Shown piece by piece: positions 551-56,562 of a stretch of 64,000 nucleotides of DNA. Every line of letters starts with the position of its first letter. Position 1 is the first letter of the stretch. Source of the stretch: a virus; the IMG/VR virus record IMGVR_UViG_3300021963_000049, positions 52,689-116,688 of that record; one strand, 5' to 3'. Made by a program: the position numbers and the translations under genes. The notes under the pieces are model-generated. The model was not told the DNA's origin and ran no database searches. It was given only the letters and a program-made list of their open reading frames with translations.

Positions 551-1131
551 TTATTTATTGGTTTTAAAAATATATCCTGAGATAGTATTTTAACTGGATA
601 ATCTTTTTGTATCTCTGCATACTTAGAGTTATCTTCAGAGTATGCACCAAGTTCTTTTACTCGGGTGCTTCTCAGAGTCTTCATAGCAAGATATACTAAG
701 TTAAAATTGTCTCTATCTTCTGAATTCAACATGTTCCACATGTTCTCTATCTCTTCAGCTGTTATATAACCAGTTTCTCTTAGTAATTGCATTTCTGCCA
801 TTAGTATAAATGGTTTATATTCTCCAGCTTTAGTTCCTCTTTTATATAGAAACCAGAGATAGTTTAGATTATTATCTACAGTTTTTGTCATCTCAAAATG
901 TTCATCCACAATTTCAGATATAAATACCTCAAATCCTTTTAGTTTTTCCATAATCTCATCAATTTTAAATAAGTACATAAGAGTATCCATGTTCATAGAA
1001 TCATCTTGTACATAGTAACCTTTACTTTCTAATTGATTTAAAGCATCTTTTGGATATCCAGGATACATGGGAGTATTCCATGTTTCATAAGGCCTTCTAT
1101 TGTATACAGACCTTGTTAAATAGTTTGTCAT
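547..1131 (-). CDS. hypothetical protein
   Basis: 194 aa ORF with coupled start/stop overlaps. Confidence 0.75.
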   Translation of the reverse strand: MTNYLTRSVYNRRPYETWNTPMYPGYPKDALNQLESKGYYVQDDSMNMDTLMYLFKIDEIMEKLKGFEVFISEIVDEHFEMTKTVDNNLNYLWFLYKRGTKAGEYKPFILMAEMQLLRETGYITAEEIENMWNMLNSEDRDNFNLVYLAMKTLRSTRVKELGAYSEDNSKYAEIQKDYPVKILSQDIFLKPINK

Positions 1132-17335: not shown

Positions 17336-17486
17336 ATTATATTTGCTTTGTAATGTTCAAGTATTTAAATTTAGAGTATTTAGATTTAGACATTAATTTT
17401 GACGAAGCTGAAAGCCCTAGATATTTTTCTAGGGTTTTTAGTTTAAACAAAAAAAGTTTTTATATTTGCTAACCAACAAATTGTGT

Positions 17487-33517: not shown

Positions 33518-33605
33518 TTAGCTATATAATGCAAAAAAAGATTGCAGCCTATCTAAATTTCTGAAGTTTATTTTGTATATTAAAGTATAAACAAAAACCA
33601 ACAAA

Positions 33606-36531: not shown

Positions 36532-36610
36532 TATATAAAAAATGGGAGAGGGGCAGCAGTGTCCTTCTCTCTTTTTATTTTAACCAACAAATATAAAAAC
36601 CAACAAAAAA

Positions 36611-38421: not shown

Positions 38422-38436
38422 TTAAAATTTATTATC

Positions 38437-38823: not shown

Positions 38824-38825
38824 TT

Positions 38826-39083: not shown

Positions 39084-39085
39084 TC

Positions 39086-40243: not shown

Positions 40244-40253
40244 TTTATATATC

Positions 40254-40793
40254 ATGAAAAAGATGGCCTGTGCTCAATGTGGCGGAGCAAAAATGAAGAA
40301 AGGTGGTACATCACCTAATAAGAAAATGCAAAAAGGAGGTTCTATAGGTATTGTAGGCATGCCTAAGTATGGTAACAATCCTATGACTGATGAAGGTAGA
40401 ATGCTTCAAAAAGGTGGCTCTTTTGCTCCTAACCGTGCAGTACAGTCTTCTTGTAAGAATGGTAGGGTTAGAGATGAGAAAGGAAGATGTGTTATGGCTA
40501 GAAAAATGGCCAAAGGAGGATCTTCAGATTTTGGTATGTTATCAGTAAAAGCTGGAGTAGACAAAAATCCTAATCCAACACAGGCAGATAGAATAGCCGG
40601 TGCTAAAATGCAAAAAGGTGGTAACTGGATTCAAGGTGCAATTAAAAAACCTGGAGCTTTAAAAGCATCTCTTGGAGTTAAGAAAGGTGAAAAAATACCT
40701 AAAGGTAAACTTGCTGCTGCTGCAAAGAAAGGTGGTAAACTTGGACAAAGAGCTAGACTTGCTATGACTCTTGGTAAAATGAGAAAAAAGTAA
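40254..40793 (+). CDS. highly basic protein with repeated MxKGG motifs
   Basis: MKKGG, MQKGG, LQKGG, MAKGG, MQKGG; C-terminal WIQGAIKKPGAL...GQRARLA.TL. Confidence 0.75.
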   Translation: MKKMACAQCGGAKMKKGGTSPNKKMQKGGSIGIVGMPKYGNNPMTDEGRMLQKGGSFAPNRAVQSSCKNGRVRDEKGRCVMARKMAKGGSSDFGMLSVKAGVDKNPNPTQADRIAGAKMQKGGNWIQGAIKKPGALKASLGVKKGEKIPKGKLAAAAKKGGKLGQRARLAMTLGKMRKK

Positions 40794-40799
40794 TAAGAC

Positions 40800-41498
40800 A
40801 TGACTAATAGTGCAATTACAATAAAGATGAAACAAAGGCTGAACAAATTGGACAGCCAAGACTTTGACAACATTGAATGTTGGCAAGTTGTTGAGTCTTT
40901 TAATAAAGCTCAAGTAGAGTGGTCAAGAAGGCAATTGCATGGTATTAATGTTGTCAAGGAAGGTGATGAGCAATCTACCAGAAGAAAAGATGACATGCAA
41001 GTTTTATTAACTACCGGAGATTTACCAGTAGCTCCAAAAGATGTTTACTACTTTGGAGATATACCAGCAGATTATTTACAATGGAAAAGAGTAGATGTTT
41101 TTGCAAACAAAGAATGCTGTGATAAGAGAAGAATGACAGTATACTTAGCTGAAGAAGGTAATGTTAATTTATTACTTAGAGATAAAGCTAAGCAACCTAA
41201 TTTTGAATGGGCAGAAACATTTGCAACTCTAATAAATAATAGAGTTCATATCTATACTAATAATGAGTTTGCAATACAAAGTGCAGACTTAATATACTAT
41301 AGACAACCTAGAAAAATACAAATTCTTGGTTGTGTTGATCCATATACAGGAGTTCAATCTACTGCAGAAGTACAAAGTGAATTCAAAGATGATATAATAG
41401 AATTAATAATTGATGAGGCTGTAGCAATACTAGCAGGAGATATTGAGTCAACAAACCAATATGCTAGAAACTCAGAAACAGCTGAAAGAAATAACTAA
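40800..41498 (+). CDS. head-tail ring/adaptor protein
   Basis: FNKAQ...L.YYRQP...EF.D.I.E.IIDEAV pattern of crAss-like ring proteins. Confidence 0.65.
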   Translation: MTNSAITIKMKQRLNKLDSQDFDNIECWQVVESFNKAQVEWSRRQLHGINVVKEGDEQSTRRKDDMQVLLTTGDLPVAPKDVYYFGDIPADYLQWKRVDVFANKECCDKRRMTVYLAEEGNVNLLLRDKAKQPNFEWAETFATLINNRVHIYTNNEFAIQSADLIYYRQPRKIQILGCVDPYTGVQSTAEVQSEFKDDIIELIIDEAVAILAGDIESTNQYARNSETAERNN

Positions 41499-41503
41499 AA
41501 ATA

Positions 41504-41992
41504 ATGGAATCAAAACCTAGAATGTTAAAAAGACCTGAAGCAGTTGTAACACAACCTAAGTCTGAACCATCAAAAGCTCAACCTACTCCTGACACAGGTG
41601 TTGGAGGAAGCTCATTAGATACTATGACTGCAGCTTGTGTATCTGAACTTATGAATGCAAGAACAAGTTTTCATAAGCTTCATTTAAAAGTAAAAGGAGA
41701 TGGATCATATGCAGCACATAAAGCTCTTAATGAATTATATGATGCATTACCAGATCATGCAGATTCTCTTATAGAGGGTTATCAAGGTGCAGCAGAAAAG
41801 TTACTTTCTTATACTGAAGTAGCACCAAGAACTCTTGATACAGTATCTGATGCAGTAAGTTACTTAAGAGATTTAACTGCTATGGTAACTAAATTACAAG
41901 GTAAGATGCCTTACTCAGAAATAGTAAATTCACTTGATACAGTTAAAGATACATTTAACTCTGCTAAGTATAAATTACTTTTCTTAAAATAA
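41504..41992 (+). CDS. ferritin/Dps-like protein
   Basis: HKLHL...SYAAHKALNELYD.....D.LIE.YQG...KYKL four-helix signature. Confidence 0.8.
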   Translation: MESKPRMLKRPEAVVTQPKSEPSKAQPTPDTGVGGSSLDTMTAACVSELMNARTSFHKLHLKVKGDGSYAAHKALNELYDALPDHADSLIEGYQGAAEKLLSYTEVAPRTLDTVSDAVSYLRDLTAMVTKLQGKMPYSEIVNSLDTVKDTFNSAKYKLLFLK

Positions 41993-42055
41993 TTTGGAAG
42001 ATTAAAAATCTTTGATTATATTATATATATGTTTATAAATTAAAAAATAAAAAAA

Positions 42056-43738
42056 ATGGCTTATTTTAATCATGCGTTTAGAAAAACCTTTTTAGGTACA
42101 GGAGCAGATGTATCTGGCTTCACTGTATCTGTATTAGGTGGAACTACTGTATCAGTTAATACTGATGGTGGTTTTGTAACTTCAGATGGTATGCCTACTT
42201 ATGGTTTGAATCAACTTTCACAAGATGCTGAAAGTTTCTTTGGTTCTTATGAAAGTGGGTATTTTGGATTCTTTGATCCAAAAACTAATTTATCAATAGG
42301 TGAACCTAGAAACTGTTGTCCTTTATATCTTGCTGGTTCAGCAATTTATTCAAGTGATAAAATTGGACCTTTCCATGGTGGTTATCAAGAGACTAACAAG
42401 TCTAAAATAATTAACCCTCGCTATGTGTCTAGATTCTATTCAGTTGATCCATGTGAACCACAGAATGAAGTATTACATGTTGGTTCTACATACTATACAT
42501 TAGGTGCTGGTGCAGTAGTTGCGGTAGGTGGTGTATTAACTGGAAGTATTACAACTCCAGGTGCAGGATATACTGATACAGCTACTGCAGTTGTAGCTAC
42601 AACTTCAACTGTTTCAGGAACTGGAACTGGACTTACATTGTTTATCACTGTAGCTGCTGGAGTACCAACAGTAACAGGTATAGCAAGTCTTGGTAAAGGT
42701 TATGCAGTTGGAGATACTGTAACAATTACTGATTGGGATGGTGCTACACCAGGAACATTAGCAGTATTTGAAATAGATACAATTGCATCAACAGGTGTTG
42801 ATCCTATTACAGGTTCAGGTGGTGCAGCATGTTGTAAAGAGTTTTTATGTGGTGAGACATATACTTTGCGTTTAGATATCAAAGGTTCTCCAGCATTAAG
42901 ATACTTAAACCACAATGCTTACTACATTGCATCTGCATACACAGGATGTTGTCCTGATGGAGCAATTGCACCTACTCCAGTAGATTCAACTGATGTATTT
43001 ATTCAGTGGGCAAATGCTATCTTAAATTCACCAATTGTTAATCCATTTGTACAAATTATAGTACAAGATCAAACAGGTGTTCTTTGGTATGCTCCAGGAA
43101 CTTCTGCTGCATTCCTTGCTTCAGTAGGTGGTGATACTTGGAATAACTATGTATCTCCAGGATATATTACTGGTGCATGTGCAGGTATGATCTTAAATGG
43201 TGCTTATGTAGATACTAAATTTGGTGATTGTACATTCCAAATCTCTGACTTCTATGAGAAAGAGCCAGTTAAACTTTATGTTTCTGAGTTAGATTTCAAT
43301 GGAGATCCTTGTGCATTTGATGGTATTTGTGTAGTTCATGAATGTTTAGCTACTCAAGCTAATGGTCTTGGAGAAACAATTCTTAGAGATCTTCAGTTAT
43401 CTGAAGCTTACAGACAAAACTTCTTACATTCTGATTTCAGAATTAGAGAGATTACTCAAGGAAACCAGATTATACAAGCAATTAATAGAAATGGTTTGTA
43501 CTTCTCTTATTTCTTGCAACACAGTGTTCCGCGTCATAATAATCCAACTGGTACATTTGACTCAGATCAGTACTTATTACAGATTGTATCTCAAAATTCT
43601 TTGAATAGATTTGTTACTAATACAGTTGAGTGGTTAGAAGGATGTGGAGTATGTGAAATTGATGAGTTCAATTGTGTTTCTTCATGTGAAGTTCCAATTG
43701 AATTTTACACAACAACACCAAGAACACCAGTACTTTAA
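42056..43738 (+). CDS. abundant structural protein (auxiliary capsid/decoration-like)
   Basis: Own promoter motif and terminator (43757-43800); internal G/T-rich GxGYxxGD beta insert. Confidence 0.65.
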   Translation: MAYFNHAFRKTFLGTGADVSGFTVSVLGGTTVSVNTDGGFVTSDGMPTYGLNQLSQDAESFFGSYESGYFGFFDPKTNLSIGEPRNCCPLYLAGSAIYSSDKIGPFHGGYQETNKSKIINPRYVSRFYSVDPCEPQNEVLHVGSTYYTLGAGAVVAVGGVLTGSITTPGAGYTDTATAVVATTSTVSGTGTGLTLFITVAAGVPTVTGIASLGKGYAVGDTVTITDWDGATPGTLAVFEIDTIASTGVDPITGSGGAACCKEFLCGETYTLRLDIKGSPALRYLNHNAYYIASAYTGCCPDGAIAPTPVDSTDVFIQWANAILNSPIVNPFVQIIVQDQTGVLWYAPGTSAAFLASVGGDTWNNYVSPGYITGACAGMILNGAYVDTKFGDCTFQISDFYEKEPVKLYVSELDFNGDPCAFDGICVVHECLATQANGLGETILRDLQLSEAYRQNFLHSDFRIREITQGNQIIQAINRNGLYFSYFLQHSVPRHNNPTGTFDSDQYLLQIVSQNSLNRFVTNTVEWLEGCGVCEIDEFNCVSSCEVPIEFYTTTPRTPVL

Positions 43739-43812
43739 TAAAACAATAACTTAAGAAAAGGGAGAGTGAGAGTTTATATTTCTCCTCTCCTTTTCTTTTT
43801 ATATAACATCTC

Positions 43813-44355
43813 ATGGCAAATCATGTCCTAAGTTTAGAAGTACCTACAGTTATGAACCCTTGTATTCTAAAAATATTTGATACAAGTGTTTACAGCAATC
43901 TTATTTCTATAAGTTGTCCTATACTAAACATAACTGTGCCCGGATTTGGTTATTCAAATCAAATTGATGTTACTCCAAATTTTGCAGAAACATTAACTGC
44001 TTGTGATTTACAACTGCAAACTACAGATTGTGGAACTACTTACTGGAATATTCCTGATGGAATATATATTATTAAGTATAGTGTAGAACCAAAAGACTTA
44101 GTATATGTAGAGTACAATCATTTAAGAATAACAGAAGCACTAAATAAATATTATAATGTTCTATGTGATATAGATGCTAATGCTTGTGATCCACCAGCAA
44201 AAGTAAAAAAGCAACTTGAAGAATTAAGATTAATTTATATGTATCTTCAAGCTGCAAAAGCAAAAGTAGAAACTTGTCATGAGCCACAGAAAGGCATGAG
44301 CTTATACAATTATGCTTTAAAGCTTTTAAATAAAATGTCTTGTACAAATTGTTAA
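43813..44355 (+). CDS. structural protein (tail hub-like)
   Basis: IPDGIY.IKYSV.P motif. Confidence 0.6.
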   Translation: MANHVLSLEVPTVMNPCILKIFDTSVYSNLISISCPILNITVPGFGYSNQIDVTPNFAETLTACDLQLQTTDCGTTYWNIPDGIYIIKYSVEPKDLVYVEYNHLRITEALNKYYNVLCDIDANACDPPAKVKKQLEELRLIYMYLQAAKAKVETCHEPQKGMSLYNYALKLLNKMSCTNC

Positions 44356-44376
44356 AAAAATTAAAACCAACAAATT

Positions 44377-44568
44377 ATGGCAATATGTCCAAACTGCGGA
44401 ACTGCTATGTCTTGCGGATGTCAAAAGAGAGTAGTTAATGGAGTGAATGGGTGTAGTAAATGTTTAAATAATGCACCTAAGAAAACAATACAAAGAAACC
44501 AACCAATACAAAACCAAGCTGTCTGGGGTAAAGACAGATATAATAACTTAAGTAAGTTTACAAAATAA
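44377..44568 (+). CDS. small Cys-rich protein
   Basis: CPNCG..MSCGCQ...CSKC. Confidence 0.65.
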   Translation: MAICPNCGTAMSCGCQKRVVNGVNGCSKCLNNAPKKTIQRNQPIQNQAVWGKDRYNNLSKFTK

Positions 44569-46349
44569 TGAGTGCTATAGTATATTCTTTTGTTCCTTGT
44601 TGTGATCCAACTGCTGATCCAATTCAGTTTAATACTCATGGAGTATTTTTACCAACTGTTCCTGGAACATACTTATATACAGATTTACCATTGAATGGTT
44701 TAGAAGATGGTCAATGTTATAGTGTAACTGAAACAACAGGTGGATTACCAAATCCGGCATTACCATATTTAAATAGCATAGCTGGTTTTGAACTCATAGC
44801 TGGTGGCTGTGAAGATGAACAATGTTCATGTGGAGATCAGTGCTATATACTTACAAGCTGTGATAGTTTTGTAATATACTCTGATTCTGATCTAGCATTA
44901 TATGTAGATCAGTTTGTGAGTTTAGTAGAATATCCTGGAGAATGTTTTTATGTTGAACTAGGTCAACCAGGAGGATGCGGCCCAAGTCCAATAGCAGTTA
45001 ATGTAGATCCAGATATACCATGCAGTTGCCCATGTAATTGTTATATAATAACCGGATCTGGTACAGTAAGTTATATAGCATGTGATGGAACTAAATCTAC
45101 AGCATTTGCTCCGGCACAATTTTGTTCTGTATCATATCCAGAAATTACTTCTGGTATAGGTTCATTAGAAATATTTGACAATGGCTTATGTGATGACATC
45201 ACTGGTTGTCCAGAAAAGTGTTTCTTACTAACCAACTGTGATCCAAGTATTACAGAAACAATAACTTCAAATACTTTTACATTACTGCAATATGCTTTAA
45301 ATAATCAAATAATAACTATTTCTGGTTATGAGGGATGTTGGACAGTAGAAGAAACTGAAGTGTGTGATTGTGCTGTACCAGTTACTATAATTCAAAGTTT
45401 TAGTAGTTGTGAAACATGTTCACCTCCACCTGCTTATAAACTTATTAATTGTGATAATGCTTCACAGATAATATATACTTATCAAGATCTTTCTGCATAT
45501 ATTGGCAAAGTTTTATCATTAGATTGCGGAGGATGTTGGATTGTTGAACTATTAACAATTCCTCCACCAAGTACACAAGTAGTAACAGTACTTTTTGAGT
45601 TTGATACTTGTGAGTTGTGTAAAGCTACATATTATAGACTAACAGACTGTGCAGGTTTTAAGGATGAAGTTATAACTACTACAGATTTATCAGCTTATCT
45701 TGGTGATGTAATACAAATAAAGTTTTGTGATGATACTTGTTGGACAGTAAATCAAACAGATCCTGAACCATCAGATGGTGAAGTTACAGTTTTACAATCT
45801 TTTGGTAGAGCATGTCAACCATGTTTAGTAGCAATTGCTACTCCAAAATGTGTAGTATTTACTAATCTTACTAATAACCCTGTATCATTTGGATATGTAA
45901 CAGCAGAAGGAACAGTAATTAAAGCAACATTGCTGGCAAATGAATCTACAGAAAAAGCTTGTTATTTGTCATGGGATGTAAATCAAAGTATACAAGTTAC
46001 AGAGTATGGTGACTGTGTTGATGGGTTATGTCCAGAAGTTCCAAGACCAAAAAGAAAAGTAAAACCAGGGTACAGTGTTCCAGTATGTAGTACTGAAAAG
46101 TATGAGAAAATAACATGCAGAGCATCTGAGATATATTATAAAATGGTCTTAGAAAAAAGATATGGTATTGGTAATTGCTGTGATGATCTGAGTGATAAGT
46201 GGTTACTTAAAAAAGAAATTATAGATTTACAAGGACTAATAGATCCAGATTATACATGCACAGTAATTACAAGCTGTTGTAATCAGCCTATTAATACATG
46301 CGGGTGCGGCTGCAACAGCACACCAACTATTAGAACTTGCAATTCTTAA
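44568..46349 (+). CDS. Cys-rich repeat structural protein
   Basis: Repeated C(Y/F)xLTxC...DLSAY.G....C..CW.V units. Confidence 0.75.
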   Translation: MSAIVYSFVPCCDPTADPIQFNTHGVFLPTVPGTYLYTDLPLNGLEDGQCYSVTETTGGLPNPALPYLNSIAGFELIAGGCEDEQCSCGDQCYILTSCDSFVIYSDSDLALYVDQFVSLVEYPGECFYVELGQPGGCGPSPIAVNVDPDIPCSCPCNCYIITGSGTVSYIACDGTKSTAFAPAQFCSVSYPEITSGIGSLEIFDNGLCDDITGCPEKCFLLTNCDPSITETITSNTFTLLQYALNNQIITISGYEGCWTVEETEVCDCAVPVTIIQSFSSCETCSPPPAYKLINCDNASQIIYTYQDLSAYIGKVLSLDCGGCWIVELLTIPPPSTQVVTVLFEFDTCELCKATYYRLTDCAGFKDEVITTTDLSAYLGDVIQIKFCDDTCWTVNQTDPEPSDGEVTVLQSFGRACQPCLVAIATPKCVVFTNLTNNPVSFGYVTAEGTVIKATLLANESTEKACYLSWDVNQSIQVTEYGDCVDGLCPEVPRPKRKVKPGYSVPVCSTEKYEKITCRASEIYYKMVLEKRYGIGNCCDDLSDKWLLKKEIIDLQGLIDPDYTCTVITSCCNQPINTCGCGCNSTPTIRTCNS

Positions 46350-46383
46350 GAATTATTTGTATATTATAATATAAGAAACATAT

Positions 46384-48096
46384 ATGAAGCCTTTAAATCT
46401 AGATAATAAACCTTGTAGTCCAATATCAAGCAACTGTGTTATTTGGCAAGGTCCTGATATTCCATGTATTAAATTATGTACAGGAGATACAATATCTGAT
46501 GTAGTATTTAAACTTGCTACTGAATTATGTACTATTATGGATCAGTTAAATATATCTAACTATGATCTATCATGCTTTAACTTAGCAGCTTGTCCACCTC
46601 AAGATTTTCAACAACTTATTCAATTTTTAATTGATCAAATCTGTATAGCACAAGGAATTACTCCAACAGATACTAAAGTAGCTGGATGTCCAGATTGTTT
46701 AGTTACAATTGCTCCTTGTTTTATAACAGGTACTCAAACTACTATGCAATTAGTAGATTATGTTCAAATGATTGCAGAAAGAGTTTGTAGCATTATAGAT
46801 CAGATTCAAGTAATAAATAATCAAATACAAAACTTACAGGTAAGAGTAGAGATATTAGAAAATACTCCTCCTCCAGTTTTTACACTTCCATCAATTGATA
46901 CTGGTTGTTTAGCACCTTATATGGGTGGAGCAGTTAGTGCACAAATTGATGCAGTACTAGACACATTACTTAATGATCCAACAATTGGATATTGTCAGCT
47001 TATTGGAGCAACTGGTTTACCAGCAGATTTAATCTCTGCAGTAGCAAGTCAATGTATTGATTCAACTGATGATTCTTTGGCTAATCCAGGTGAAACAATG
47101 GGAACTGCATATTTTCCTAATTGGGTAAATACACCAACAACTGTTGCAGATGCTATAACTAATTTATGGTTGTCTGTTTGTGATATTTATAACTATTTAT
47201 CCGGAGCACCTACTATAAATGTTGTAGATACAACAACTGTCAATTTAACATATACTTCTGGTACATTACAAGCTGATGTTCAAGATACTGGTTGGGTAGA
47301 TTTATTAGGATTTGATTTTTATTCTACTGATCCTACAATGACAATACCAAGACCACAATGTAGAAGAATTGGTAATGTAGTACATTTTAGAGGTCAAGTA
47401 ACAATACCTTTACAAGTATCTGGTTCTCCAGGACTAGTTAGAACATATCTTTATGGTGGTGGCCAAGATACATATTTAGGAGGCACTGCACCAAATAATG
47501 TTATTACACCTTATCAAGGTAATGGCGGAGTAAGATTAGATTCATCAGGATTTATAGAATTTAATTCAAATGGTATTACTGCACAAAGTGTAATTCCTAC
47601 AAGTGTTATACCTGGGGGGTATGTACTAGATGGTAGGTATCAAAATGATGGATGGAAACTTGCTTATAGAGTTGTTGATACAGGTTCAAATACAACTATA
47701 CTTACAACTTTCTTTAGCCCAGTAATTACAGAAAATGGTGTTTTAACTTTTGGTTTAATAAAGAATGCAGAAGAAGGTATTGTTGGAGGAGGCGGTTCAG
47801 TAGCATGGGATACATGTCCAATAAATAATGTTATATCTCATGTTCTTTCTGGTTACGCTGTTCCTAAATATGACAATGGTTTACCAGCTGCAGCAACAAA
47901 TGTTTTACATGATGGTGGAGGAGCTACAGGTATGCAAACTAGACAAGTTTACTACAGTACTACTGAAGAATATCCATTTTCATGTAATGCTAATGATGAA
48001 AATGATGTTGGTGGTTTCCATTTAAGAATAGATGGTTTAACAGCATTTATTAGCCCTTGTGTAACAACAATACCAACTCCAACACCTTGTTCTTAA
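46384..48096 (+). CDS. Cys-rich fibre-like protein
   Basis: SNCVIWQGPDIPC N-terminus, coiled coil, DTGWVDL...RRIGNVVHFRG. Confidence 0.75.
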   Translation: MKPLNLDNKPCSPISSNCVIWQGPDIPCIKLCTGDTISDVVFKLATELCTIMDQLNISNYDLSCFNLAACPPQDFQQLIQFLIDQICIAQGITPTDTKVAGCPDCLVTIAPCFITGTQTTMQLVDYVQMIAERVCSIIDQIQVINNQIQNLQVRVEILENTPPPVFTLPSIDTGCLAPYMGGAVSAQIDAVLDTLLNDPTIGYCQLIGATGLPADLISAVASQCIDSTDDSLANPGETMGTAYFPNWVNTPTTVADAITNLWLSVCDIYNYLSGAPTINVVDTTTVNLTYTSGTLQADVQDTGWVDLLGFDFYSTDPTMTIPRPQCRRIGNVVHFRGQVTIPLQVSGSPGLVRTYLYGGGQDTYLGGTAPNNVITPYQGNGGVRLDSSGFIEFNSNGITAQSVIPTSVIPGGYVLDGRYQNDGWKLAYRVVDTGSNTTILTTFFSPVITENGVLTFGLIKNAEEGIVGGGGSVAWDTCPINNVISHVLSGYAVPKYDNGLPAAATNVLHDGGGATGMQTRQVYYSTTEEYPFSCNANDENDVGGFHLRIDGLTAFISPCVTTIPTPTPCS

Positions 48097-48107
48097 TTAA
48101 TTAAATC

Positions 48108-48668
48108 ATGGCAACAACAAAATGTAAAAAATGTGGGTGTGAAGATAGCTTTTTAATAAGTCCTCCACCATGTCCAACTCCAGAAGGATGTCCGGATCCA
48201 GAACCATGTTCAGAAGTATTTGACGCACAATGTGTAGTATATACAGGTCCAAATTTACAATGTGGTTTAGATAATGTTGTACTTACAAACAGTGCTCTTA
48301 ATATTGCATTAGAAGATATAATTGGTTATTTCTGTCAAGAGATAACTGCTTTGCCTACATATGATGTTGTAGCTGGACAAGGAATTACTGTTACTGAAAA
48401 TACAGTAGGTACAGCAACTACATTTACAGTTACTAATAATGGAGTAAAAAAATATACTAATTCAGCTATGTTTGTTCCCGCAACACCAACTAATGTAGTT
48501 CACAATTTAAATACAATTTTTGTAACTCTATCAATTGTAACAAGTTCAGGTTTGCCATATACAGCATATGTGCATGGCACTGACTATACATATACTATTA
48601 TTGACCCAAATACAATATCAGTAAATCTAGTACCGGGAGGTGCAGCTAATGTAACTGTTATTGGTTAA
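48108..48668 (+). CDS. Cys-rich fibre-like protein
   Basis: CVVYTGPNL.C N-terminus (paralogous to 46384), VHNLNT domain. Confidence 0.7.
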   Translation: MATTKCKKCGCEDSFLISPPPCPTPEGCPDPEPCSEVFDAQCVVYTGPNLQCGLDNVVLTNSALNIALEDIIGYFCQEITALPTYDVVAGQGITVTENTVGTATTFTVTNNGVKKYTNSAMFVPATPTNVVHNLNTIFVTLSIVTSSGLPYTAYVHGTDYTYTIIDPNTISVNLVPGGAANVTVIG

Positions 48669-48673
48669 AGAGT

Positions 48674-48740
48674 GTCGCAGTTTGTTGGTTTCTGTGGCTA
48701 ACAAAAGCAAAGCCCCTACACTTGTGGGGGTTTTGTTTTA
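48674..48740 (+). ncRNA. 3'-UTR hairpin with anti-leader loop plus intrinsic terminator
   Basis: GTCGCAG-TTTGTTGGTTT-CTGTGGC, then gcccctaca/tgtgggggt plus a T tract. Confidence 0.6.
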
Positions 48741-48789
48741 TTCATACATTTGTTACTCTCATTTATTTTTAGTATATTAAATATATGGT

Positions 48790-49371
48790 ATGAAGGAATT
48801 TAAAAAACCAGATGTAAAAGCTCCTAGATTTAGACCAAGAAAGTATAGTGTCTTAAACAAAGAGTTCTTTGAAAAATTTAAAAAAAAGTATCCAAAGTAT
48901 AAAGACTTAGAGGATAAATATTTAAGACAAGTCATGAAAGACTTTAATAAAATAATTTATCAAACAGTTATAGATACTAGAGATGGAGTACAACTTCCTG
49001 AACTAATTGGATGGCTTTTTATAGGTACATGTGAGCAAAGTAAAAAACAGAATGTAGACTTTGCAAAATCAAAAAAGTATGGTGTGACAGTTACAAATAA
49101 AAATTGGGAAACAGATGGTAAGCTGGCTAAGATATTTTTTAGTAACTATGCACCAAAGCATAAAATGAGAAACAGGGAGTTCTGGGGATTTACTGCATGT
49201 AGAGAATTTAAAAGAGCTGTGGCAAGATCATATCCAGAAAACTGGAACATGTATTTAACAGCATATAATAATAAGCAAATAAAGCTCACCTATCAAAAAG
49301 TCTTTGTAAAAGACTTGAGAGAAAAAAATACTGAAAGAGCTTTAAAAACATATAATGAGTTTGATATATGA
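48790..49371 (+). CDS. IHF/HU-like protein
   Basis: GVQLPELIGWLFIG...F.ACREFKRAVA; position matches the crAss-like IHF gene before the tail genes. Confidence 0.65.
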   Translation: MKEFKKPDVKAPRFRPRKYSVLNKEFFEKFKKKYPKYKDLEDKYLRQVMKDFNKIIYQTVIDTRDGVQLPELIGWLFIGTCEQSKKQNVDFAKSKKYGVTVTNKNWETDGKLAKIFFSNYAPKHKMRNREFWGFTACREFKRAVARSYPENWNMYLTAYNNKQIKLTYQKVFVKDLREKNTERALKTYNEFDI

Positions 49372-50039
49372 CAACAATAGGGGAAGCAATATCAAGAGTG
49401 AGGAATACACTCAAAGCAGTTAAAGAGGATCCTTTTTTAACTGATAGAGTTATTTATTTCTCTTTAATAAAATATGGGCAAACTCTTTTGAAGAGAGAAG
49501 ACAATCAGTTTAGACTAATGAAAATTAGCTCAATATTTTCTGTGCTTCCTTATGTAGAATTAATTGATGTAGATAAAGTAGAAGCAGGTTGTACAGGTAT
49601 TTACTCTGGATGTTATTTTAAAAGATCAAAAGAAAAGCTGCCAACAATACTCGATGGTGCAATGGGACCAATTATCAGAACTGTGTCATCTATTGATAGT
49701 TCAATAGAAATGTTTAGAACAGATCCAGGAACTTGGACATCAATGACAAGAACAACTACTTTTAAATATAATATGAATAAATACTTTTGGTATTTAAATG
49801 GATACTTATATGCACCAAATATTGATTGGGATGCAATAAGAGTTGAAGCAATTTTTGAAGGAGATAGAGCTGAGTATTTATGTGATAAGGCTGATGCATG
49901 TGAGATTAGGCAAGACCAGCCACTTCCATTTCCAGAATATCTATTTTCAGAGATAGAACAGTATGTAATAAAAGAATTAACCATGATAGCATCTGTTCCA
50001 ACTGATGGGGCTGATGATAGCCAAAATGTATTTAGATAA
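49368..50039 (+). CDS. tail ring/tubular protein
   Basis: TDR.I, Y.WY.NGYLY, V.A.FE pattern. Confidence 0.65.
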   Translation: MTTIGEAISRVRNTLKAVKEDPFLTDRVIYFSLIKYGQTLLKREDNQFRLMKISSIFSVLPYVELIDVDKVEAGCTGIYSGCYFKRSKEKLPTILDGAMGPIIRTVSSIDSSIEMFRTDPGTWTSMTRTTTFKYNMNKYFWYLNGYLYAPNIDWDAIRVEAIFEGDRAEYLCDKADACEIRQDQPLPFPEYLFSEIEQYVIKELTMIASVPTDGADDSQNVFR

Positions 50040-51079
50040 TGGATTTTAACTACACACTCAAGTATAGAACATTTAACCAGTTGCTGGAGGATGTTACTAT
50101 TGATCTTAATACTTTTGCTCTTGAAAATATGATTGAGCCACAGCAGTTAATTAAACTTGCTAAGAAACTTAATTATGAATTAGGCTTAAGAATTAATCAA
50201 ACAAAAGAAGTAGTTCTAGAAGTATGTCATGGTAAAGTAAAATTACCAGATGATTTCTATGTATGGAACTATGGTTTAGTTTGTTTAGACAGAGAAGAAA
50301 GAATTGGATATGGTGGTATGCAAGGTGGAACTAATATTCAAGAGGTTCCATATCAAGAAGTACCAAGTACTGTAAATCCATGTGCTCCCGCTACTGTAAA
50401 CTGTAGAACATGTAATTCTAATCCATGTAATCAAACTGCAGCTTGTGATCTTAATCATCCTGTAGTAGATCCAATACCTACTGTATATGATCCTAATAAT
50501 CCATATGGAAATACATGTGTTCCACCAAGAGTTTTTATGAACTGTAAAGGAGAGCAGTATGAATTAGTTCAAGTAATTAATCCAGGTCTTACAAGAACAT
50601 ATAGAACTCTTGCTCCATTAAGAATGAAGAACAGTCAAGAGATAGATTGTGAGTGTCCAAATCTTTATTATAATAGTGCAAATGAAGGTTGGCTTAAGGA
50701 TGGTTATTTATATACAACCTTTGAAACCGGAAATGTATATATCAATTATCAAGGAGCAATGGAAGATGCAGATGGCAACTTACTTGTTCCAGATCATGAT
50801 TTATTAAATGAGTACTATGAGTATGCTTTTAAACAAAGAATACTTGAGAACTTATTTATTAATGGAGAAGATGTTGCTCAAAGAATGCAAATAATTGAGC
50901 AGAGAATAAGACCAGCTAGAAACTTAGCATTATCATTAGTTAACACTCCTAACTTTAAAGAGATGGAGAAAATGTGGTGGACTAATAGAAGAGCCATGTA
51001 TGCAAAATACTATGATATGTTTAAGTCATATACATATGGTAATTATGCTAGGAGAATGTATAATACTAGAGTTATATAA
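50039..51079 (+). CDS. tail tubular/ring protein with Cys-rich insert
   Basis: KVKLP.DF, YT.FETG.VYINY.G...D.DG.LLVPD. Confidence 0.65.
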   Translation: MDFNYTLKYRTFNQLLEDVTIDLNTFALENMIEPQQLIKLAKKLNYELGLRINQTKEVVLEVCHGKVKLPDDFYVWNYGLVCLDREERIGYGGMQGGTNIQEVPYQEVPSTVNPCAPATVNCRTCNSNPCNQTAACDLNHPVVDPIPTVYDPNNPYGNTCVPPRVFMNCKGEQYELVQVINPGLTRTYRTLAPLRMKNSQEIDCECPNLYYNSANEGWLKDGYLYTTFETGNVYINYQGAMEDADGNLLVPDHDLLNEYYEYAFKQRILENLFINGEDVAQRMQIIEQRIRPARNLALSLVNTPNFKEMEKMWWTNRRAMYAKYYDMFKSYTYGNYARRMYNTRVI

Positions 51080-51081
51080 TT

Positions 51082-54000
51082 ATGGCAGAAAATAATTTAC
51101 AAGATACCAGTAAATTAATTACTAATACATTTGTTAAGGGTTTAAATAAAGATTCAGATCCTTCATATGTGTCTGAAGGTATGTGGACACATGCTGTAAA
51201 TGCTGTTAATAATAGTGTAGAAGGTGATGTAGGTTCATTATCTAATGAAGTTTCAAATTATTTATGTGCAACGGCAGGTGAGACTATGCCACTAAATATT
51301 GCAGAAAAATATATAATAGGAGCAATATACTTATACTCTGATAAATGGGCAATATTTACTGCAGGTCACAATGCATTAGGACAACCTGTTATGTCAGAGA
51401 TTGGACTTCTTGAAGAAGATAGATGTATATATAGACCAATAGTACAAGACATCTGTTTAAGATTTGATAAAAGATATCTTATATCCGGGGCTTCTAGAGA
51501 AAAAGAAGATTGCACCTGGCAAGTATATTGGGCTGATGGAAAAAATCCAGATAGATATTTAAATATAGGAGATCCTAAAACTTGGCCACCTAGTGATTTT
51601 TCATGGTTAGGTGGTGGTGCTTCTTCTATGAACTATTATTCAAATGGTACACAGCAAATGCTTTGGCCAGGAGTTGCATGGAATCAGGATTGTGAACTTG
51701 TAGATAATTGTAACATATGTACAGATCTTAATTCACTTGACTGTGACCAAACAAGATTAGCAAGATTAATGGAAACACCTTGTCTTAATTTAAGACTTGG
51801 TAATCAAGGTGGAACACTAGCAAATGGAACTTATTTTGCAGTTATTACATATACTATAAAAGGTCAAAAAGTAACTGATTATTTCTCACAAAGTAATAAT
51901 CAATTTATATATACTGTTAATGATCTAGAAGGATCTTTAAACTTAGAAGTTTCTGCGGACTCTGAAAACTTTGATGAGTTTGAGTTAGTAATTGTACAAA
52001 ATATAAATCAAGGTACAGTTGCAAAAAGAATGGGTGTTTACTCTACTAAGACTACTTCAATTTCTATAGATCAAATAGATCCGACAAACATTACTGTACC
52101 AATAGAACAATTACCAATTCAAACTCCTGTTTATGAGAAGTCAGATCAAATAACAGAAGTTAATGAATATTTACTTAGAGTTGGTCCTACATCTAAATTT
52201 GATTTTAATTATCAACCTCTTGCTAATTTGATTAGATCAAGATGGGCATCTGTTGAGTATCCAGCTGATTATTACATAAAAGGTGGTAATAAAACAAACT
52301 ATCTTAGAGATGAAGTTTATTGCTTTTTTATAAGATGGGTGTATGATACTGGAGACAAGTCTTCATCATATCATATCCCAGGTAGAGCACCAAGAGATTT
52401 TACTATTCCTTTAACCGGAGCTTTAGTAAGTGAAACACAATCTTTAGTAAATCCAAATACACTAACTCCAGGAGAATCAGTATTTCAAGTATATAATACT
52501 GCAAATACATTATCAAGTCCACTGATTGGTTCTAACACAGATGATGGTGGAACAGTCATAGCAACTGGAGAAATGGGCTATTGGGAATCATCAGAATCTT
52601 ATCCAGATAATAGACCTGATATATGGAACTCATCAAATTACTGCTGGACTAATGTTCCAGTAGATCCAGTAACTAGTCTTCCTATACCTAATACAAATTA
52701 TGATTTGTGTGGTCAAAAAATTAGACACCATAAGTTTCCAGAAAACTATATAAATAATAATAGTACAACTAATGTTATTCACTTTAGAAGAAATGTAAAC
52801 TCAAGTACTACAGGGCCTCAAAACTTTATTAGAATACTTGGAGTATATTTTGAGAATATAATATTACCAAAGGATAATGATGGTGAAGATATTCCGGGGA
52901 TTGTAGGCTTTGAAATATTAAGAGGTTCTAGAGAAGGTAATAAAACTATTATTGCCAAAGGAATGGTCAATAACTTAAGAAGTTATGAAATAAGAGGTGG
53001 TAGCAAAAAAGGAAGAATTGGTTTATATCCAAACTATCCATTTAATACTATCTATCCACTTAATAACCAAAGCACAAACCCAGGTCTTCATAACTTTAGT
53101 TATAATGATCCATATATAAAAAATGAAAAGACTAATGGTGATTATGTAAATCAAATAGTTCCAAAAGATGTATTTACATTTCACTCACCAGATACAATGT
53201 TTAGAACTCCTTTCTTATCTACAAGTGAGTTTAAAATATATGGTCACTTAAAAGGATATGCTGAACAACAGTTTTTGTTTCCAGACAAGCATCCAAAGTT
53301 TAAGCTTCTATCAAATCTTGCAATACTTCCTATGATTATCACTGGGGTTGCCCAAGGTATTATTTCAATGCTTGGTAAGAAAACAGTAAACCAACCTGAT
53401 ATATTAGGAGCTAGTGGTGTTTCAGATGCAGCAGGTGTTGCAGCAGCTACTTATACAACTGCAGCAACAGCATTAGGACTTCCAGTAACTGGACCATTAG
53501 CACTTTATAATACATTTGTAAATAACTATTATTCATCTGGTACAGCATTATTAGATGTAGCAGCAGAATTTATACCTTTTGTACCAACAGCAGCAGTTAC
53601 TGCAGAAAATACACTTATTACAGCATTAAATGCAAGTGCTATTGCTCAAGTAAATGCTCCAGTAATTAGAACTGGCGCAATAGAATTACCAGACTTTGCA
53701 TATTTACCCGGAGCCGTTAAAACATTAGGAGCTATAAATCAGTTAGCATTTTATTTTTCAGAAGGTGCAGAGATAGCTTTAAGAATATTATATGCAGTAG
53801 TTACATATAAGCAATATGCATTACAGAGTATGTCATATGGTTTCTATGATAATATGAATAGTAATCCGGTTTCAGAAATATTTAGATTTAAAATCCAAGA
53901 TAGTTTTTATATAAGAGATAATATTCAAGAAGTTAATAGGTATCAAACAAGCTCCGGTGTCTGGACTTCTTATATGATAAACAACTTAAAGAGATCAGAT

Positions 54001-56562
54001 GCCGTTGTAGTAAGAACAGTAAATGGAGCAGATGTAACAGATGGTCCTAGCTTCATTGGTGTTCCAACTAATGCTTCAGGTTTTCCAACAGGTAATCAAT
54101 TATCTGGACTTGATAAATCTCTTGTAACATTAGGGTCACTAAATCAAAGTTACTATGGAGCTAACTCTTCTGCTTCAATACTAGCTCCCGGTGGTTTTCC
54201 TAATTTTCAAAATCCAGATACATCTTTTGGTTTACCAATTGGAAGTCATTATGGGGCCCTCAAAGGAAGAGTTGTAAACCAATATGGTCAGCTTGAATCA
54301 GTAAGGCAAATAGTAATTACTCCATGTGAGCAAAAACTAAATACTTATTTGCTCAGCAATATTGGTCCATTTAATTGTGGCGGATTAGCATACACACAAA
54401 GAAAAGTTATATCAACACCAGTATTCTTTAATGGAGATACTTACATAAATAGATATACTGAAAAGAATAACATGATGTTCTTCTATGACTGGTTATATGA
54501 TCAGCCAGATGGCTTTGAGTATAATTACTATCTAAGGAACATGATTTCATCAACAAGGTTTGTTGTTAACAGCCAGTTGTATGAACCAGCAAATCTTTCA
54601 GGTTTAATAGATATAGCAAGTGTTGTTGCACCATCAACAGGTAGTGGAGCATATCCAGGAGAGTTTTATAATCTTGATTTCTATATTGATCCAACAAGAT
54701 ATTATAATTATGGGATTGATCAAAATATGGGTCCCCTTGGGCCATTCCCATTTAACTTAATCTTTGATGGTTATAGAGGTACTTTTAGTGTAAAGCAAGC
54801 CTACTTCTATTTAGCTAATTCATCTATAAGAGATTTCTTTGTTGAGTCAGATGTACTAATAGACTTTAGACAACAAGGGTTACTAGATGGGGAGAAGCAC
54901 TATGATCCATATAGATTTACTAACTATCAGGTTATGTTCAGCATGAATCCTGATGTGATGGGTAGAAATAGTATCTATGCATATGACTATTCTTTAAGTG
55001 TTTCTAAATTATATAACCAATACTTTTCTGCTGGTAACTTACAGTCTAGATACTATGATCCAAATGTAGCAGAACTATGCTATACTTATTATCCGGATAG
55101 AGTAATATACTCACTACCTCAGCAAATTGAATCTATAAAAGATAGCTGGTTTGTATACTTAGTTAACAACTATAAAGAGTTTAAGTCTCAGATTAGTGGA
55201 GTTAAATCTATAAACAAAAGTGGTATTATAATTACTTTTAAGAATGATAGTCCATTAATGTATCAAGGTGTAGATACACTTGAAACAGATCTTGGTACAA
55301 AAATTACAATTGGAGATGGTGGTTTATTTAGCCAGCCTCAACAATCTATATCCAATGCTGATAAGTCCTATGAGTATGGATCATCTCAAAACAGATTGTC
55401 TGTTATTTCAACTCCTGTGGGAATATTCTACATGTCACAAAACCAAGGTAAGATATTTAACTATGGTCAAGGACTTACTGAAATTTCTCAAGCTGGATTA
55501 AAATGGTGGTTTACTTTGTATTTACCATATAAGTTAACAGAAGATTTTCCAGAATATCCATGGCAAGATAATCCAGTAGTAGGTATTGGTTGTCAGTCAG
55601 TATATGATAATACCAGCAGTTTACTTTATTTCTGTAAAAAAGATTATAAGCTTAAAGCTCAGTATAAAGGTAAAGTAACTTATGTACCTATTACACCAAA
55701 AGGACAAGGAGATTACTTTACATTAAGTTCAAATCCAGGCTCAAGATATAAATTAGGTGATCCAGATATATTTGATAATGCATCTTGGACAGTAAGTTAT
55801 GATCCTAAGAATCAGTTCTTTATATCATTCCATGACTGGCATCCAGATTTACTAATACCAACTAAAGATACTTTCTTAAGTACAAAAAGAAATGGTATGT
55901 GGAAGCATAACTTTTTATGTAATGACTTCTGCCAGTTCTATGGTCAAAGATATCCATTTGAGGTAGAGATACCAATTATTACTGGACAGACTGTAATGAC
56001 TACAAGATCTATAGAATACATACTTGAGTGTTATAGAAGAAGCAGTACAAGCTGTATAGATCAACACAATGTAGCAGATTATAATTTTGATCAAGCTATT
56101 GTATATAACGCAGAGCAAGTATCCGGGTACTTAAACTTAAACCTATTCCCAAAGAACAATATAACATTAAGCTTACAGTATCCTAAGTTAAATGCTAACT
56201 TGTCCTCATATGATATATTATTTTCTAAAGAGGAAAACAAATATAGGTTTAACCAGTTCTGGGATATAACTAGAGATAGAGCTGAGTTTCCTATTGGGTC
56301 AGACTATCCTCCTACTGGACCTGTAATACCAGGTAGTACTATTCTTCAAGGTAACTATGATTCTCAAAATACATGGGTAACAGGTCCTGATGGTTATAAT
56401 AGAATTCTTAATCCAAACAACATGAACTATAATAAGGAATTGTTGCAGAGAAAAAAGTTTAGGCATTACTTAAACTACTTAAACTTAAGAAGAAATGTAT
56501 CTACAGATGTAAACATGATCCTTAAAATAGTAAATAGTAAAAATCAATATTCCCCTAGATAA
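51082..56562 (+). CDS. tail stabilisation/muzzle protein
   Basis: 1826 aa; F.KGLNKD N-terminus, YLRDEVY.F.IRW, IRHHKFP, F.SFHDW.P. Confidence 0.8.
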   Translation: MAENNLQDTSKLITNTFVKGLNKDSDPSYVSEGMWTHAVNAVNNSVEGDVGSLSNEVSNYLCATAGETMPLNIAEKYIIGAIYLYSDKWAIFTAGHNALGQPVMSEIGLLEEDRCIYRPIVQDICLRFDKRYLISGASREKEDCTWQVYWADGKNPDRYLNIGDPKTWPPSDFSWLGGGASSMNYYSNGTQQMLWPGVAWNQDCELVDNCNICTDLNSLDCDQTRLARLMETPCLNLRLGNQGGTLANGTYFAVITYTIKGQKVTDYFSQSNNQFIYTVNDLEGSLNLEVSADSENFDEFELVIVQNINQGTVAKRMGVYSTKTTSISIDQIDPTNITVPIEQLPIQTPVYEKSDQITEVNEYLLRVGPTSKFDFNYQPLANLIRSRWASVEYPADYYIKGGNKTNYLRDEVYCFFIRWVYDTGDKSSSYHIPGRAPRDFTIPLTGALVSETQSLVNPNTLTPGESVFQVYNTANTLSSPLIGSNTDDGGTVIATGEMGYWESSESYPDNRPDIWNSSNYCWTNVPVDPVTSLPIPNTNYDLCGQKIRHHKFPENYINNNSTTNVIHFRRNVNSSTTGPQNFIRILGVYFENIILPKDNDGEDIPGIVGFEILRGSREGNKTIIAKGMVNNLRSYEIRGGSKKGRIGLYPNYPFNTIYPLNNQSTNPGLHNFSYNDPYIKNEKTNGDYVNQIVPKDVFTFHSPDTMFRTPFLSTSEFKIYGHLKGYAEQQFLFPDKHPKFKLLSNLAILPMIITGVAQGIISMLGKKTVNQPDILGASGVSDAAGVAAATYTTAATALGLPVTGPLALYNTFVNNYYSSGTALLDVAAEFIPFVPTAAVTAENTLITALNASAIAQVNAPVIRTGAIELPDFAYLPGAVKTLGAINQLAFYFSEGAEIALRILYAVVTYKQYALQSMSYGFYDNMNSNPVSEIFRFKIQDSFYIRDNIQEVNRYQTSSGVWTSYMINNLKRSDAVVVRTVNGADVTDGPSFIGVPTNASGFPTGNQLSGLDKSLVTLGSLNQSYYGANSSASILAPGGFPNFQNPDTSFGLPIGSHYGALKGRVVNQYGQLESVRQIVITPCEQKLNTYLLSNIGPFNCGGLAYTQRKVISTPVFFNGDTYINRYTEKNNMMFFYDWLYDQPDGFEYNYYLRNMISSTRFVVNSQLYEPANLSGLIDIASVVAPSTGSGAYPGEFYNLDFYIDPTRYYNYGIDQNMGPLGPFPFNLIFDGYRGTFSVKQAYFYLANSSIRDFFVESDVLIDFRQQGLLDGEKHYDPYRFTNYQVMFSMNPDVMGRNSIYAYDYSLSVSKLYNQYFSAGNLQSRYYDPNVAELCYTYYPDRVIYSLPQQIESIKDSWFVYLVNNYKEFKSQISGVKSINKSGIIITFKNDSPLMYQGVDTLETDLGTKITIGDGGLFSQPQQSISNADKSYEYGSSQNRLSVISTPVGIFYMSQNQGKIFNYGQGLTEISQAGLKWWFTLYLPYKLTEDFPEYPWQDNPVVGIGCQSVYDNTSSLLYFCKKDYKLKAQYKGKVTYVPITPKGQGDYFTLSSNPGSRYKLGDPDIFDNASWTVSYDPKNQFFISFHDWHPDLLIPTKDTFLSTKRNGMWKHNFLCNDFCQFYGQRYPFEVEIPIITGQTVMTTRSIEYILECYRRSSTSCIDQHNVADYNFDQAIVYNAEQVSGYLNLNLFPKNNITLSLQYPKLNANLSSYDILFSKEENKYRFNQFWDITRDRAEFPIGSDYPPTGPVIPGSTILQGNYDSQNTWVTGPDGYNRILNPNNMNYNKELLQRKKFRHYLNYLNLRRNVSTDVNMILKIVNSKNQYSPR

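Follow-up and report, generated by a model that had tools for sequence, protein, structure and literature searches.

Why should the loop of an RNA hairpin in the 3' untranslated region (3' UTR) of one phage gene be the exact antisense of a short motif placed at the start codons of several other genes of the same phage? This question is raised by a locus at positions 48674-48739 of the stretch analyzed here (the window, 64,000 nucleotides), which comprises bases 52689-116688 of the 116,688-bp IMG/VR virus record IMGVR_UViG_3300021963_000049, estimated to be 99% complete. The comparative analysis described below indicates that the hairpin probably controls the translation of about six phage genes by RNA pairing. 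The phage is a member of Crassvirales, since gene 34912-36531 encodes the Crassvirus major capsid protein (MCP; PF23898, 1.7e-29; also found with PHROGs) and gene 51082-56562 the Crassvirus muzzle protein (crAss_MUZ, PF25731, 2e-30; also found with PHROGs). Among the phages of Bacteroidota, the crAss-like ones belong to the most abundant, and their post-transcriptional control is essentially unknown.

Structure of the hairpin locus

The coding strand of the window changes at about 16.5 kb, genes to the left of this point being on the minus strand and those to the right on the plus strand. The hairpin is located on the plus strand, 5 nt downstream of the stop codon (48666-48668) of gene 48108-48668. 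The hairpin thus occupies a 3' UTR and is followed by the terminator that also ends the upstream mRNA, a layout typical of 3'-UTR-derived small RNAs (sRNAs) that is also present in the relatives. The following elements were distinguished; the positions that a first-pass annotation of this DNA had given for the hairpin and for the motif copies all proved correct on re-checking.

48674..48698, plus strand: RNA hairpin with a 7-bp stem (GUCGCAG/CUGUGGC) and an 11-nt loop, supported by the sequence, RNAfold and stem pairing in relatives
48681..48691, plus strand: loop UUUGUUGGUUU, whose core UUGUUGGUU (48682-48690) is the anti-tag, a candidate seed, invariant in the alignment
48699..48711, plus strand: A-rich linker (UAACAAAAGCAAA), whose AACAA can pair with the loop (alternative fold) and whose A-tract pairs with the terminator U-tract
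48713..48739, plus strand: intrinsic terminator with the stem 48713-48719/48724-48730, the loop ACUU and the U-tract UUUUGUUUU at 48731-48739, supported by RNAfold and stem covariation

The arms GTCGCAG (48674-48680) and CTGTGGC (48692-48698) enclose the loop TTTGTTGGTTT (48681-48691), and the two G-U pairs of the stem correspond to C-A on the opposite strand. The second stem-loop (48713-48730) is followed directly by UUUUGUUUU, as expected of an intrinsic terminator. The minimum free energy structure predicted by RNAfold holds both the hairpin and the terminator (-31.8 kcal/mol, z = -3.98, with 0/200 shuffles equally stable). For the hairpin alone the predicted energy is -7.1 kcal/mol, and in the ensemble the unpaired probability of the loop nucleotides is about 0.8. 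An Rfam cmscan of 48500-48900 (E up to 10) gave 18 matches, none of them at the gathering score; the best sub-threshold match was rnk_pseudo (29.7 bits vs 55 needed), and GcvB and C4 were not among the 18.

Conservation of the hairpin in related phages

The gene for a 193-aa protein, located downstream of the terminator (48790-49371), has 149 relatives in IMG/VR, 80 of which (62-71% identity) were kept and inspected over 160 nt upstream. The counts of loci given here and below include sequences related to each other, and several of the locus sets share contigs. The loop core TTGTTGG was found upstream of the gene in 79 of the 80 kept loci, the 80th being cut by a contig end. Together with the window, the kept loci yielded 54 distinct 80-nt sequences, in which the loop columns TTGTTGGTT are invariant and the flanks and the upstream coding sequence differ. 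The stem takes several forms, including GUUACAG/CUGUGAC, GUUGCAG/CUGUAAC, GUUACGG/CUGUAAC, GUCGCAG/CUGUGGC, GUCGCAG/CUGUGAC and others, and two subgroups of relatives use a shifted, longer stem. In the 54 sequences 97.3% of the stem cells are paired, compared with 37-60% when the 3' partner is slid, and none of 500 shuffles reaches the observed pairing or covariation score. Most stem changes are one-sided (U-A/U-G and A-U/G-U exchanges, plus C-G), and the variation is therefore good evidence for a helix in the plus-strand RNA, not overwhelming covariation. The terminator stem pairs in 99.7% of its cells and covaries at two of its pairs, both sides having changed in 9 sequences at one pair and in 17 at the other.

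The hairpin was also found outside this set. A second query gave 16 further distinct upstream regions, all with the loop core, and an 18-nt pattern composed of the loop and an arm matched 103 IMG/VR stretches (one per contig). Among the 80 matches listed of these 103, 67 are canonical, seven precede another terminator and six are chance matches without a stem. In the seven relatives, the same hairpin is followed by a completely different terminator and downstream region. The gene upstream of the hairpin also differs between relatives; in the 186-aa protein encoded upstream in the window, the N-terminal part is conserved and the C-terminal part is variable, with 17 loci matching within residues 1-114 and most of these matches ending between residues 76 and 110. 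The upstream genes had been labeled as fibre genes in the first-pass annotation, a label that none of the family searches (PHROG, Pfam) confirmed.

More distant lineages were reached with a query representative sharing 40% identity with the 193-aa protein of the window; in all six loci found with it (39-44% identical to the query), a hairpin displaying TTGTTGGTT stands just before a terminator. In L052 and L065 the loop has an insertion, and the accompanying leaders (L139, L136) are unchanged. In all hairpins found the 9-nt loop core is constant and its surroundings change. The expectation that relatives would combine a varying stem with an invariant loop was thus borne out in the 54 distinct sequences, at the divergent terminators and in the distant lineages.

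The mutually exclusive fold that had been put forward as a possible switch, in which the loop would be hidden, is possible (about 18% of the ensemble, judged by unpaired probabilities) and is without comparative support: 85.2% of the cells of its helix can pair, with slid controls reaching 77.5%, no two-sided change was seen, and shuffles equal the observed values. An H-type pseudoknot of the loop with the downstream CAACAA was rejected by reasoning on geometry, as there is no connecting loop to cross the 7-bp stem.

The complement of the loop at start codons

The reverse complement of the loop, the 11-nt motif AAACCAACAAA (the tag), occurs exactly on the plus strand at 33595, 36597 and 44364, and copies matching at 10 of 11 positions start at 17470, 18027, 25936 and 36581. 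These copies, and one weaker candidate on the minus strand, are placed as follows.

17470..17480, plus strand: tag copy TAACCAACAAA, 6 nt 5' of ATG 17487 (64 aa), directly after a TATATTTG box; orthologous copy in relative L275
18027..18037, plus strand: tag copy AAACCAACAAT adjoining ATG 18038 (85 aa); orthologous copy in L275
25936..25946, plus strand: tag copy AAACCAACAAG in codons 3-5 of gene 25931; TATATTTG box at 25902, about 26-30 nt 5'
33595..33605, plus strand: exact tag adjoining ATG 33606, the start of a 425-aa gene just 5' of the MCP gene; conserved at orthologues
36581..36607, plus strand: two tag copies (36581-36591 and 36597-36607) before ATG 36611 (340 aa); terminator 36544-36571 upstream
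44364..44374, plus strand: exact tag 2 nt 5' of ATG 44377 (63-aa Cys-rich protein, ahead of putative fibre genes); conserved at orthologues
554..564, minus strand: G-U-compatible variant AAACCAATAAA, 3 nt before ATG 550, a weaker candidate target (predicted duplex -10.3 kcal/mol)

The gap between tag and ATG is 0 nt at 33606 and 18038, 2-3 nt at 44377 and for the proximal copy at 36611, and 6 nt at 17487; in gene 25931 the tag lies within codons 3-5. The start of the last gene reads ATG GAA AAC CAA CAA, and a start of the form ATGGAA..AACCAACAA is also present in L259, L273, L401, L402 and L424. The retention of the nucleotides of 25931-25951 in these five relatives points to an RNA-level constraint on the coding sequence.

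Copies of the tag are far more numerous than expected. With at most one mismatch, AAACCAACAAA occurs 19 times in the window compared with 3.14 +/- 1.58 expected, and none of 100 shuffles reaches 19. The 9-mer AACCAACAA is present nine times in the whole genome, both strands included; eight copies are sense to the local genes, and the single antisense copy is the hairpin loop. Gene starts were taken from crude picks of open reading frames (ORFs), 123 in the whole genome. The 9-mer lies exactly within the 30 nt before the start of five of the 123 genes, such windows making up about 1.6% of the sequence, and ranks first of 84 permutations of the same composition by its occurrence at starts. Leaders of the 123 genes are A-rich at -13 to -10 and -6 to -3, G-poor and contain only about 10% C, and the 4-mer Shine-Dalgarno (SD) core was found in one of them. 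The near-absence of SD use, earlier ascribed to the host lineage, thus holds for the phage, and together with the leader composition it fits a Bacteroidota host. Enrichment of the tag at starts goes beyond generic A-rich leaders of Bacteroidota type, as judged by the permutation rank, the low C content of the leaders and the untagged MCP leaders of relatives (described below). The commonest leader words of the phage are A/T-only; other words recurring at -30..-1 of starts in the whole genome are AAATTAAAA (8 genes) and AACTTAAAA (5 genes).

Two of the tag copies follow a TAnnTTTG box, which we take to be the -7 promoter box of Bacteroidota type. Box and tag are 1 nt apart at 17461 and about 26 nt apart at 25902; with relatives included, the gap ranges from 1 to about 30 nt. 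Only seven intergenic boxes of this kind lie on the plus strand in the 16-64 kb region. The tag was therefore rejected as a promoter part, since its distance to the boxes is not fixed. The tag can precede or follow the AUG and stays within the ribosome footprint, which is more in keeping with an RNA target site than with a promoter element or with a ribosome-binding signal at a fixed distance.

The tagged set consists of two unannotated genes flanking the MCP gene (the 340-aa gene sits just 3' of it), the gene for the 63-aa Cys-rich protein and three small ORFs of unknown function. The description of this set as an assembly regulon is partly apt: both flanking genes carry the tag, and the capsid gene itself does not. 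No PHROG, Pfam or PDB matches were obtained for the tagged proteins, which the ESM Atlas lists as 'hypothetical protein', and the AlphaFold model of the 340-aa protein has a mean pLDDT of 45.2. In BLASTP comparisons with syntenic proteins of phi14:2, a crAss-like Cellulophaga phage outside the group, a weak match was found to g090 (22% over 222 aa, E = 0.023) and none to g092.

The tag in relatives and in controls

The surroundings of the 340-aa gene were compared at 74 distinct loci, which together contain 224 exact copies of AACCAACAA, all on the sense strand. For 167 of these copies, an ATG that begins an ORF of 50 codons or more follows within 21 nt, in nearly all cases that of the 338-340-aa or 408-426-aa gene; the remaining 57 are mostly accounted for by a conserved copy inside a gene and by another that closely follows the ATG of the ~420-aa gene. 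Two copies are present in 43 of the 48 distinct leaders of the 340-aa gene (one locus, L158, with a mis-called start, was dropped from this count), at a spacing of 14 to 18 nt. Five near-complete relatives contain 7-12 tag copies each, placed at orthologues of the tagged genes of the window, and one antisense copy, the hairpin; five genomes with divergent terminators likewise have several sense tags at orthologues and one antisense copy, again the hairpin. The tag is conserved before the 410-426-aa gene and before the gene for the 63-73-aa Cys-rich protein. In five records of the distant lineages it precedes the 334-338-aa gene in all five, the 348-420-aa gene in four (the fifth record is 68% complete) and the 69-aa Cys-rich gene in two.

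The MCP leader carries the tag in 0/30 distinct relatives (47 loci) and is an ordinary A/T-rich leader; the word AAACAAACAAA at 34896 of the window is thus a chance look-alike. The tag was accordingly rejected as a generic strong leader. Where the tag varies, it does so mostly at positions 1 and 11, which coincide with the variable edges of the loop, so the invariant 9-mers are exact complements. Within positions 3-9, seven C-to-T changes, which keep G-U pairing, were found against one disruptive change; in this small sample of related sequences, the bias is no more than suggestive.

In phi14:2, the one genome outside the group that was searched, the tag is absent from both strands of 100,000 of the 100,418 nt, so that neither tag nor anti-tag is present there, a joint absence in keeping with pairing. 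This phage has a recurring leader word of its own (TAAAACTAA/AAAACTAAA, in 8 of 118 crude genes). A host-wide leader motif was rejected, since in two metagenome-assembled genomes (MAGs) of candidate hosts the tag stands before an ATG 13 and 17 times, compared with 11 and 12 for the reversed control. A loop mimicking rRNA is unsupported: no 11-mer with at most two mismatches to the loop was found in four 16S genes of three Chitinophagaceae genomes, and the best duplex of the tag with 16S rRNA has 6 bp (-8.4 kcal/mol), the host assignment coming from binning alone.

Predicted pairing and its possible role

The hairpin presents a conserved single-stranded loop complementary to conserved sites in the predicted target mRNAs, as is usual for a seed. 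Predicted duplexes of loop and tag have energies of -10.3 to -12.4 kcal/mol. The loop reaches -10 kcal/mol or lower with seven of the 123 initiation regions; the mean for shuffled loops is 0.74, and one of 300 shuffles reaches seven. A G/U-rich core (UUGUUGGUU) thus stands opposite a C/A-rich element (AACCAACAA) located at -30 to +15 of the AUG, an arrangement resembling that of GcvB. It is very unlikely, judging from the sequences compared, that two deeply invariant, exactly complementary 9-mers with coinciding edges are unrelated. Three features favor pairing between RNAs over a DNA site: the stem is conserved in the manner of an RNA, the tags are biased to one strand, and they are placed around the AUG. 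On balance, and with some reserve, we regard the element as an antisense RNA of a 3' UTR, proximal to the terminator, that would pair with the tagged translation-initiation regions much as GcvB does with C/A-rich enhancers.

Such a mechanism would operate as follows. The hairpin would form the 3' end of every late transcript stopping at 48713-48739 and would either be kept in the mRNA or be trimmed to an RNA of about 65-70 nt comprising the hairpin and the terminator. Being transcribed last before the terminator of the late block, it would have an abundance that tracks completed late transcription. The single-stranded core UUGUUGGUU would pair with AACCAACAA in the ribosome footprint of a fixed set of phage genes. 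By analogy with other G/U-rich seeds, the pairing would most likely block or tune initiation as late transcripts accumulate, occlusion of the initiation region being the most economical mechanism. The output of the tagged genes would in this way be set apart from that of the neighboring, untagged MCP gene.

A bolder proposal, speculative and in our view unlikely, is that the phage uses a private initiation code: in hosts lacking SD pairing, the tag AACCAACAA would mark a fixed gene set, and a single anti-tag hairpin at the end of the late operon would read completed late transcription and then switch the tagged genes off together, or join the tagged 5' ends to the 3' end. Timing or stoichiometry would then be set by RNA alone, through a device kept across lineages with proteins of only about 40% identity.

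Several points weigh against antisense pairing as the role of the hairpin. Two-sided changes in its stem are sparse (two pairs, in two sequences each, these being related). Loop and tag show no compensatory change, being invariant in all lineages reached, and co-conservation alone is no proof of pairing. A duplex of 9-11 bp rich in A-U and G-U pairs is modest, and we know of no chaperone for such pairing. The region upstream of the hairpin is variable coding sequence and showed no conserved promoter or processing signal from which a separate small RNA could arise. The only metatranscriptome run found, from freshwater, contains 7% of the sampled words; its contigs on 33000-52000 are 85-99% alike, evidently come from relatives and lie mostly on the capsid gene (34902-36803), which places relatives of the phage group in an RNA library. 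The mean depth of 0.38 in the bin of the hairpin is evidence neither way and gives no RNA support. We infer the accumulation of the RNA, its pairing (in trans or within one long transcript) and, as the outcome, repression in preference to activation or stabilization; the direction of the effect is a guess.

Alternative explanations

If pairing occurs, it might act in cis or positively: the 3' hairpin could meet the tagged 5' leader of the same late transcript (e.g., a unit of 36.6-48.7 kb), which would close the mRNA or protect its 5' end instead of repressing translation in trans. A consensus scan revealed no strong plus-strand terminator between 36544-36571 and the terminator of the hairpin, so a transcript from the doubly tagged leader (36581-36607) could end at the anti-tag, and two further tags lie near transcript 5' ends predicted from the TAnnTTTG boxes at 17461 and 25902. 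The scan was not exhaustive, however, as it missed the terminator at 48713-48739 itself. Moreover, the tags at 18027, 33595 and 44364 are internal to operons and the variant at 554 belongs to a minus-strand gene. We regard this arrangement as unlikely. Another possibility is that a phage or host DNA-binding protein recognizes tag and loop as a single double-stranded DNA site. This site would serve as an operator located between the promoter and the start codon, a lone copy in inverted orientation would stand at the end of the operon, and the stem would be incidental or part of a compound terminator. A DNA site reads alike in both orientations, which would explain the single inverted copy without RNA pairing, and a candidate binder is at hand in the product of gene 48790, whose relatives with 43% identity are named 'nucleoid DNA-binding protein' in some sources; this name is unverified, and the window protein has no Pfam or PHROG match. 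Such an operator would not require that stem pairing be kept through G-U pairs, which are C-A on the other strand and form an RNA pattern. Nor would it account for tag copies on both sides of the ATG at variable distances from the promoter box, for the single orientation of all 224 copies at the head loci, or for the 14-18 nt spacing of the double tag, which shows no helical phasing. We therefore consider a DNA site quite unlikely.

A further alternative separates the two elements: the hairpin would have a local function only, as a 3'-end stabilizer, a terminator helper or a site for a protein or nuclease, and the tag would be an independent C/A-rich enhancer. In its favor, the hairpin always stands immediately 5' of an intrinsic terminator, even where the terminator has been replaced, and C/A-rich elements can enhance translation unaided, according to work on GcvB (PMC3879156). 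This explanation nevertheless needs two independently invariant 9-mers that are complementary by chance, with coinciding cores and edges, and it would leave the most needed protein, the MCP, without the supposed enhancer in all 30 distinct leaders. It appears very improbable, and RNA pairing of loop and tag remains the reading that we prefer.

Promoter boxes, neighboring genes and host

The hairpin locus adjoins the start of the next transcription unit, for which one further element was distinguished.

48745..48752, plus strand: TACATTTG, presumed -7 promoter box of gene 48790-49371; kept in close relatives

The assignment of TACATTTG applies the TAnnTTTG motif as assumed above. The T-tract TTTTGTTTT lies about 5-10 nt 5' of this conserved box (48731-48752; likewise in L002-L081), and the -33 region belonging to the box overlaps the TTTTGTTTT of the terminator. 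The TTTG of TTTTGTTTT could serve as the -33 element of the next promoter, forming a compact terminator-promoter junction. The 193-aa protein encoded by this unit has 511 cluster representatives at E <= 0.001 and may be a crAss IHF-like protein, to judge from the names of its relatives.

Elsewhere in the window, intergenic TAnnTTTG boxes at 17338, 17394, 18571 and 18652 are followed by no obvious ORF, and the box at 17338 precedes a hairpin and T-run at about 17414-17440. The strong intrinsic terminator at 36544-36571 directly follows the MCP gene, with the doubly tagged leader about 10 nt further on; there is no canonical TAnnTTTG between them, and relatives often have TAnnTTTA.

Cultured relatives were sought among the GenBank phages with positions 46000-50000 (blastn) and with the proteins of 340 and 193 aa (tblastn); none was found. 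Two MAGs, labeled Bacteroidetes and Chitinophagaceae, hold contigs of the phage group, a weak host hint obtained by binning. One of these contigs, L290 (JBIPNK010000148.1; 117,852 bp), has the size of a whole phage and was binned in the Chitinophagaceae MAG, and the 'uncultured Bacteroidetes' MAG contains a 1.5-kb phage fragment and many AACCAACAAATG matches on small contigs. The contigs of either MAG could represent a host hint or binning contamination.

Significance and comparison with known systems

If the proposed pairing is true, these phages would possess a conserved riboregulator, and this in a phylum lacking SD initiation and a known sRNA chaperone; the element would also reveal a non-SD leader element that is functionally read in Bacteroidota. 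It would provide a defined 9-nt seed/tag pair, open to direct tests by compensatory mutants, and a compact orthogonal tag/anti-tag pair that might become a translation control part for Bacteroidota genetics. Literature searches by tag sequence and by topic gave no paper describing the element, the tag search giving only primers and unrelated matches among the papers listed (20 of 972). The portion of the phi14:2 study available to us deals only with promoters and temporal classes (10.1101/2020.03.07.982082).

Several known RNAs share single traits with the element. The c4 antisense RNA of phages P1 and P7 has loops that pair with short sites near the ribosome-binding region of genes of the same phage, and controls one immunity operon of a temperate phage. 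The hairpin described here would likewise be a phage-encoded RNA with a loop complementary to sites at initiation regions of its own genome; it differs from c4 in lacking an Rfam match above threshold and in addressing about six dispersed genes of a lytic-type crAss-like phage. In the icaR mRNA of Staphylococcus aureus, a 3'-UTR motif pairs with the initiation region and represses translation, the target being the SD sequence of one short monocistronic mRNA. The 3'-UTR motif complementary to an initiation region is common to both cases, whereas here the distances are 4-31 kb, the targets are several and there is no SD sequence. CpxQ, SroC and DapZ are base-pairing sRNAs derived from 3' UTRs that share the terminator of the parental mRNA. 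As in this type, the element directly follows a stop codon, ends at the intrinsic terminator of the mRNA and carries a conserved short seed; unlike these sRNAs, it is known from sequence, and its parental gene varies when the element itself stays constant. No processing site or internal promoter was identified upstream of the hairpin, and no conserved promoter is present there in the relatives.

Closer parallels are found in RNAs acting on initiation regions of many genes or on mRNAs without SD sequences. The seed of GcvB is G/U-rich. This RNA silences translation-enhancing ACA motifs, as reported earlier (PMC3879156). Like GcvB, the hairpin exposes a single-stranded G/U-rich sequence matching C/A-rich elements at or just upstream of many initiation sites, and the tag contains ACA and CAA. 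In contrast to GcvB, with which it shares no homology, it is phage-encoded, consists of a hairpin loop in a 3' UTR and has predicted targets without SD sequences, the tag being only a putative enhancer. According to a study of Bacteroides RNAs, these bacteria have no known Hfq and do have candidate UTR-derived sRNAs; one sRNA, GibS of Bacteroides thetaiotaomicron, pairs across the initiation regions of mRNAs that lack an SD sequence and represses them, no chaperone being known for this (PMC7366714). As described there, GibS is encoded by the host between genes and has a long 5' seed (30-50 nt) that is unstructured, whereas the element of this phage would act through a 9-11-nt hairpin loop located in a phage 3' UTR.

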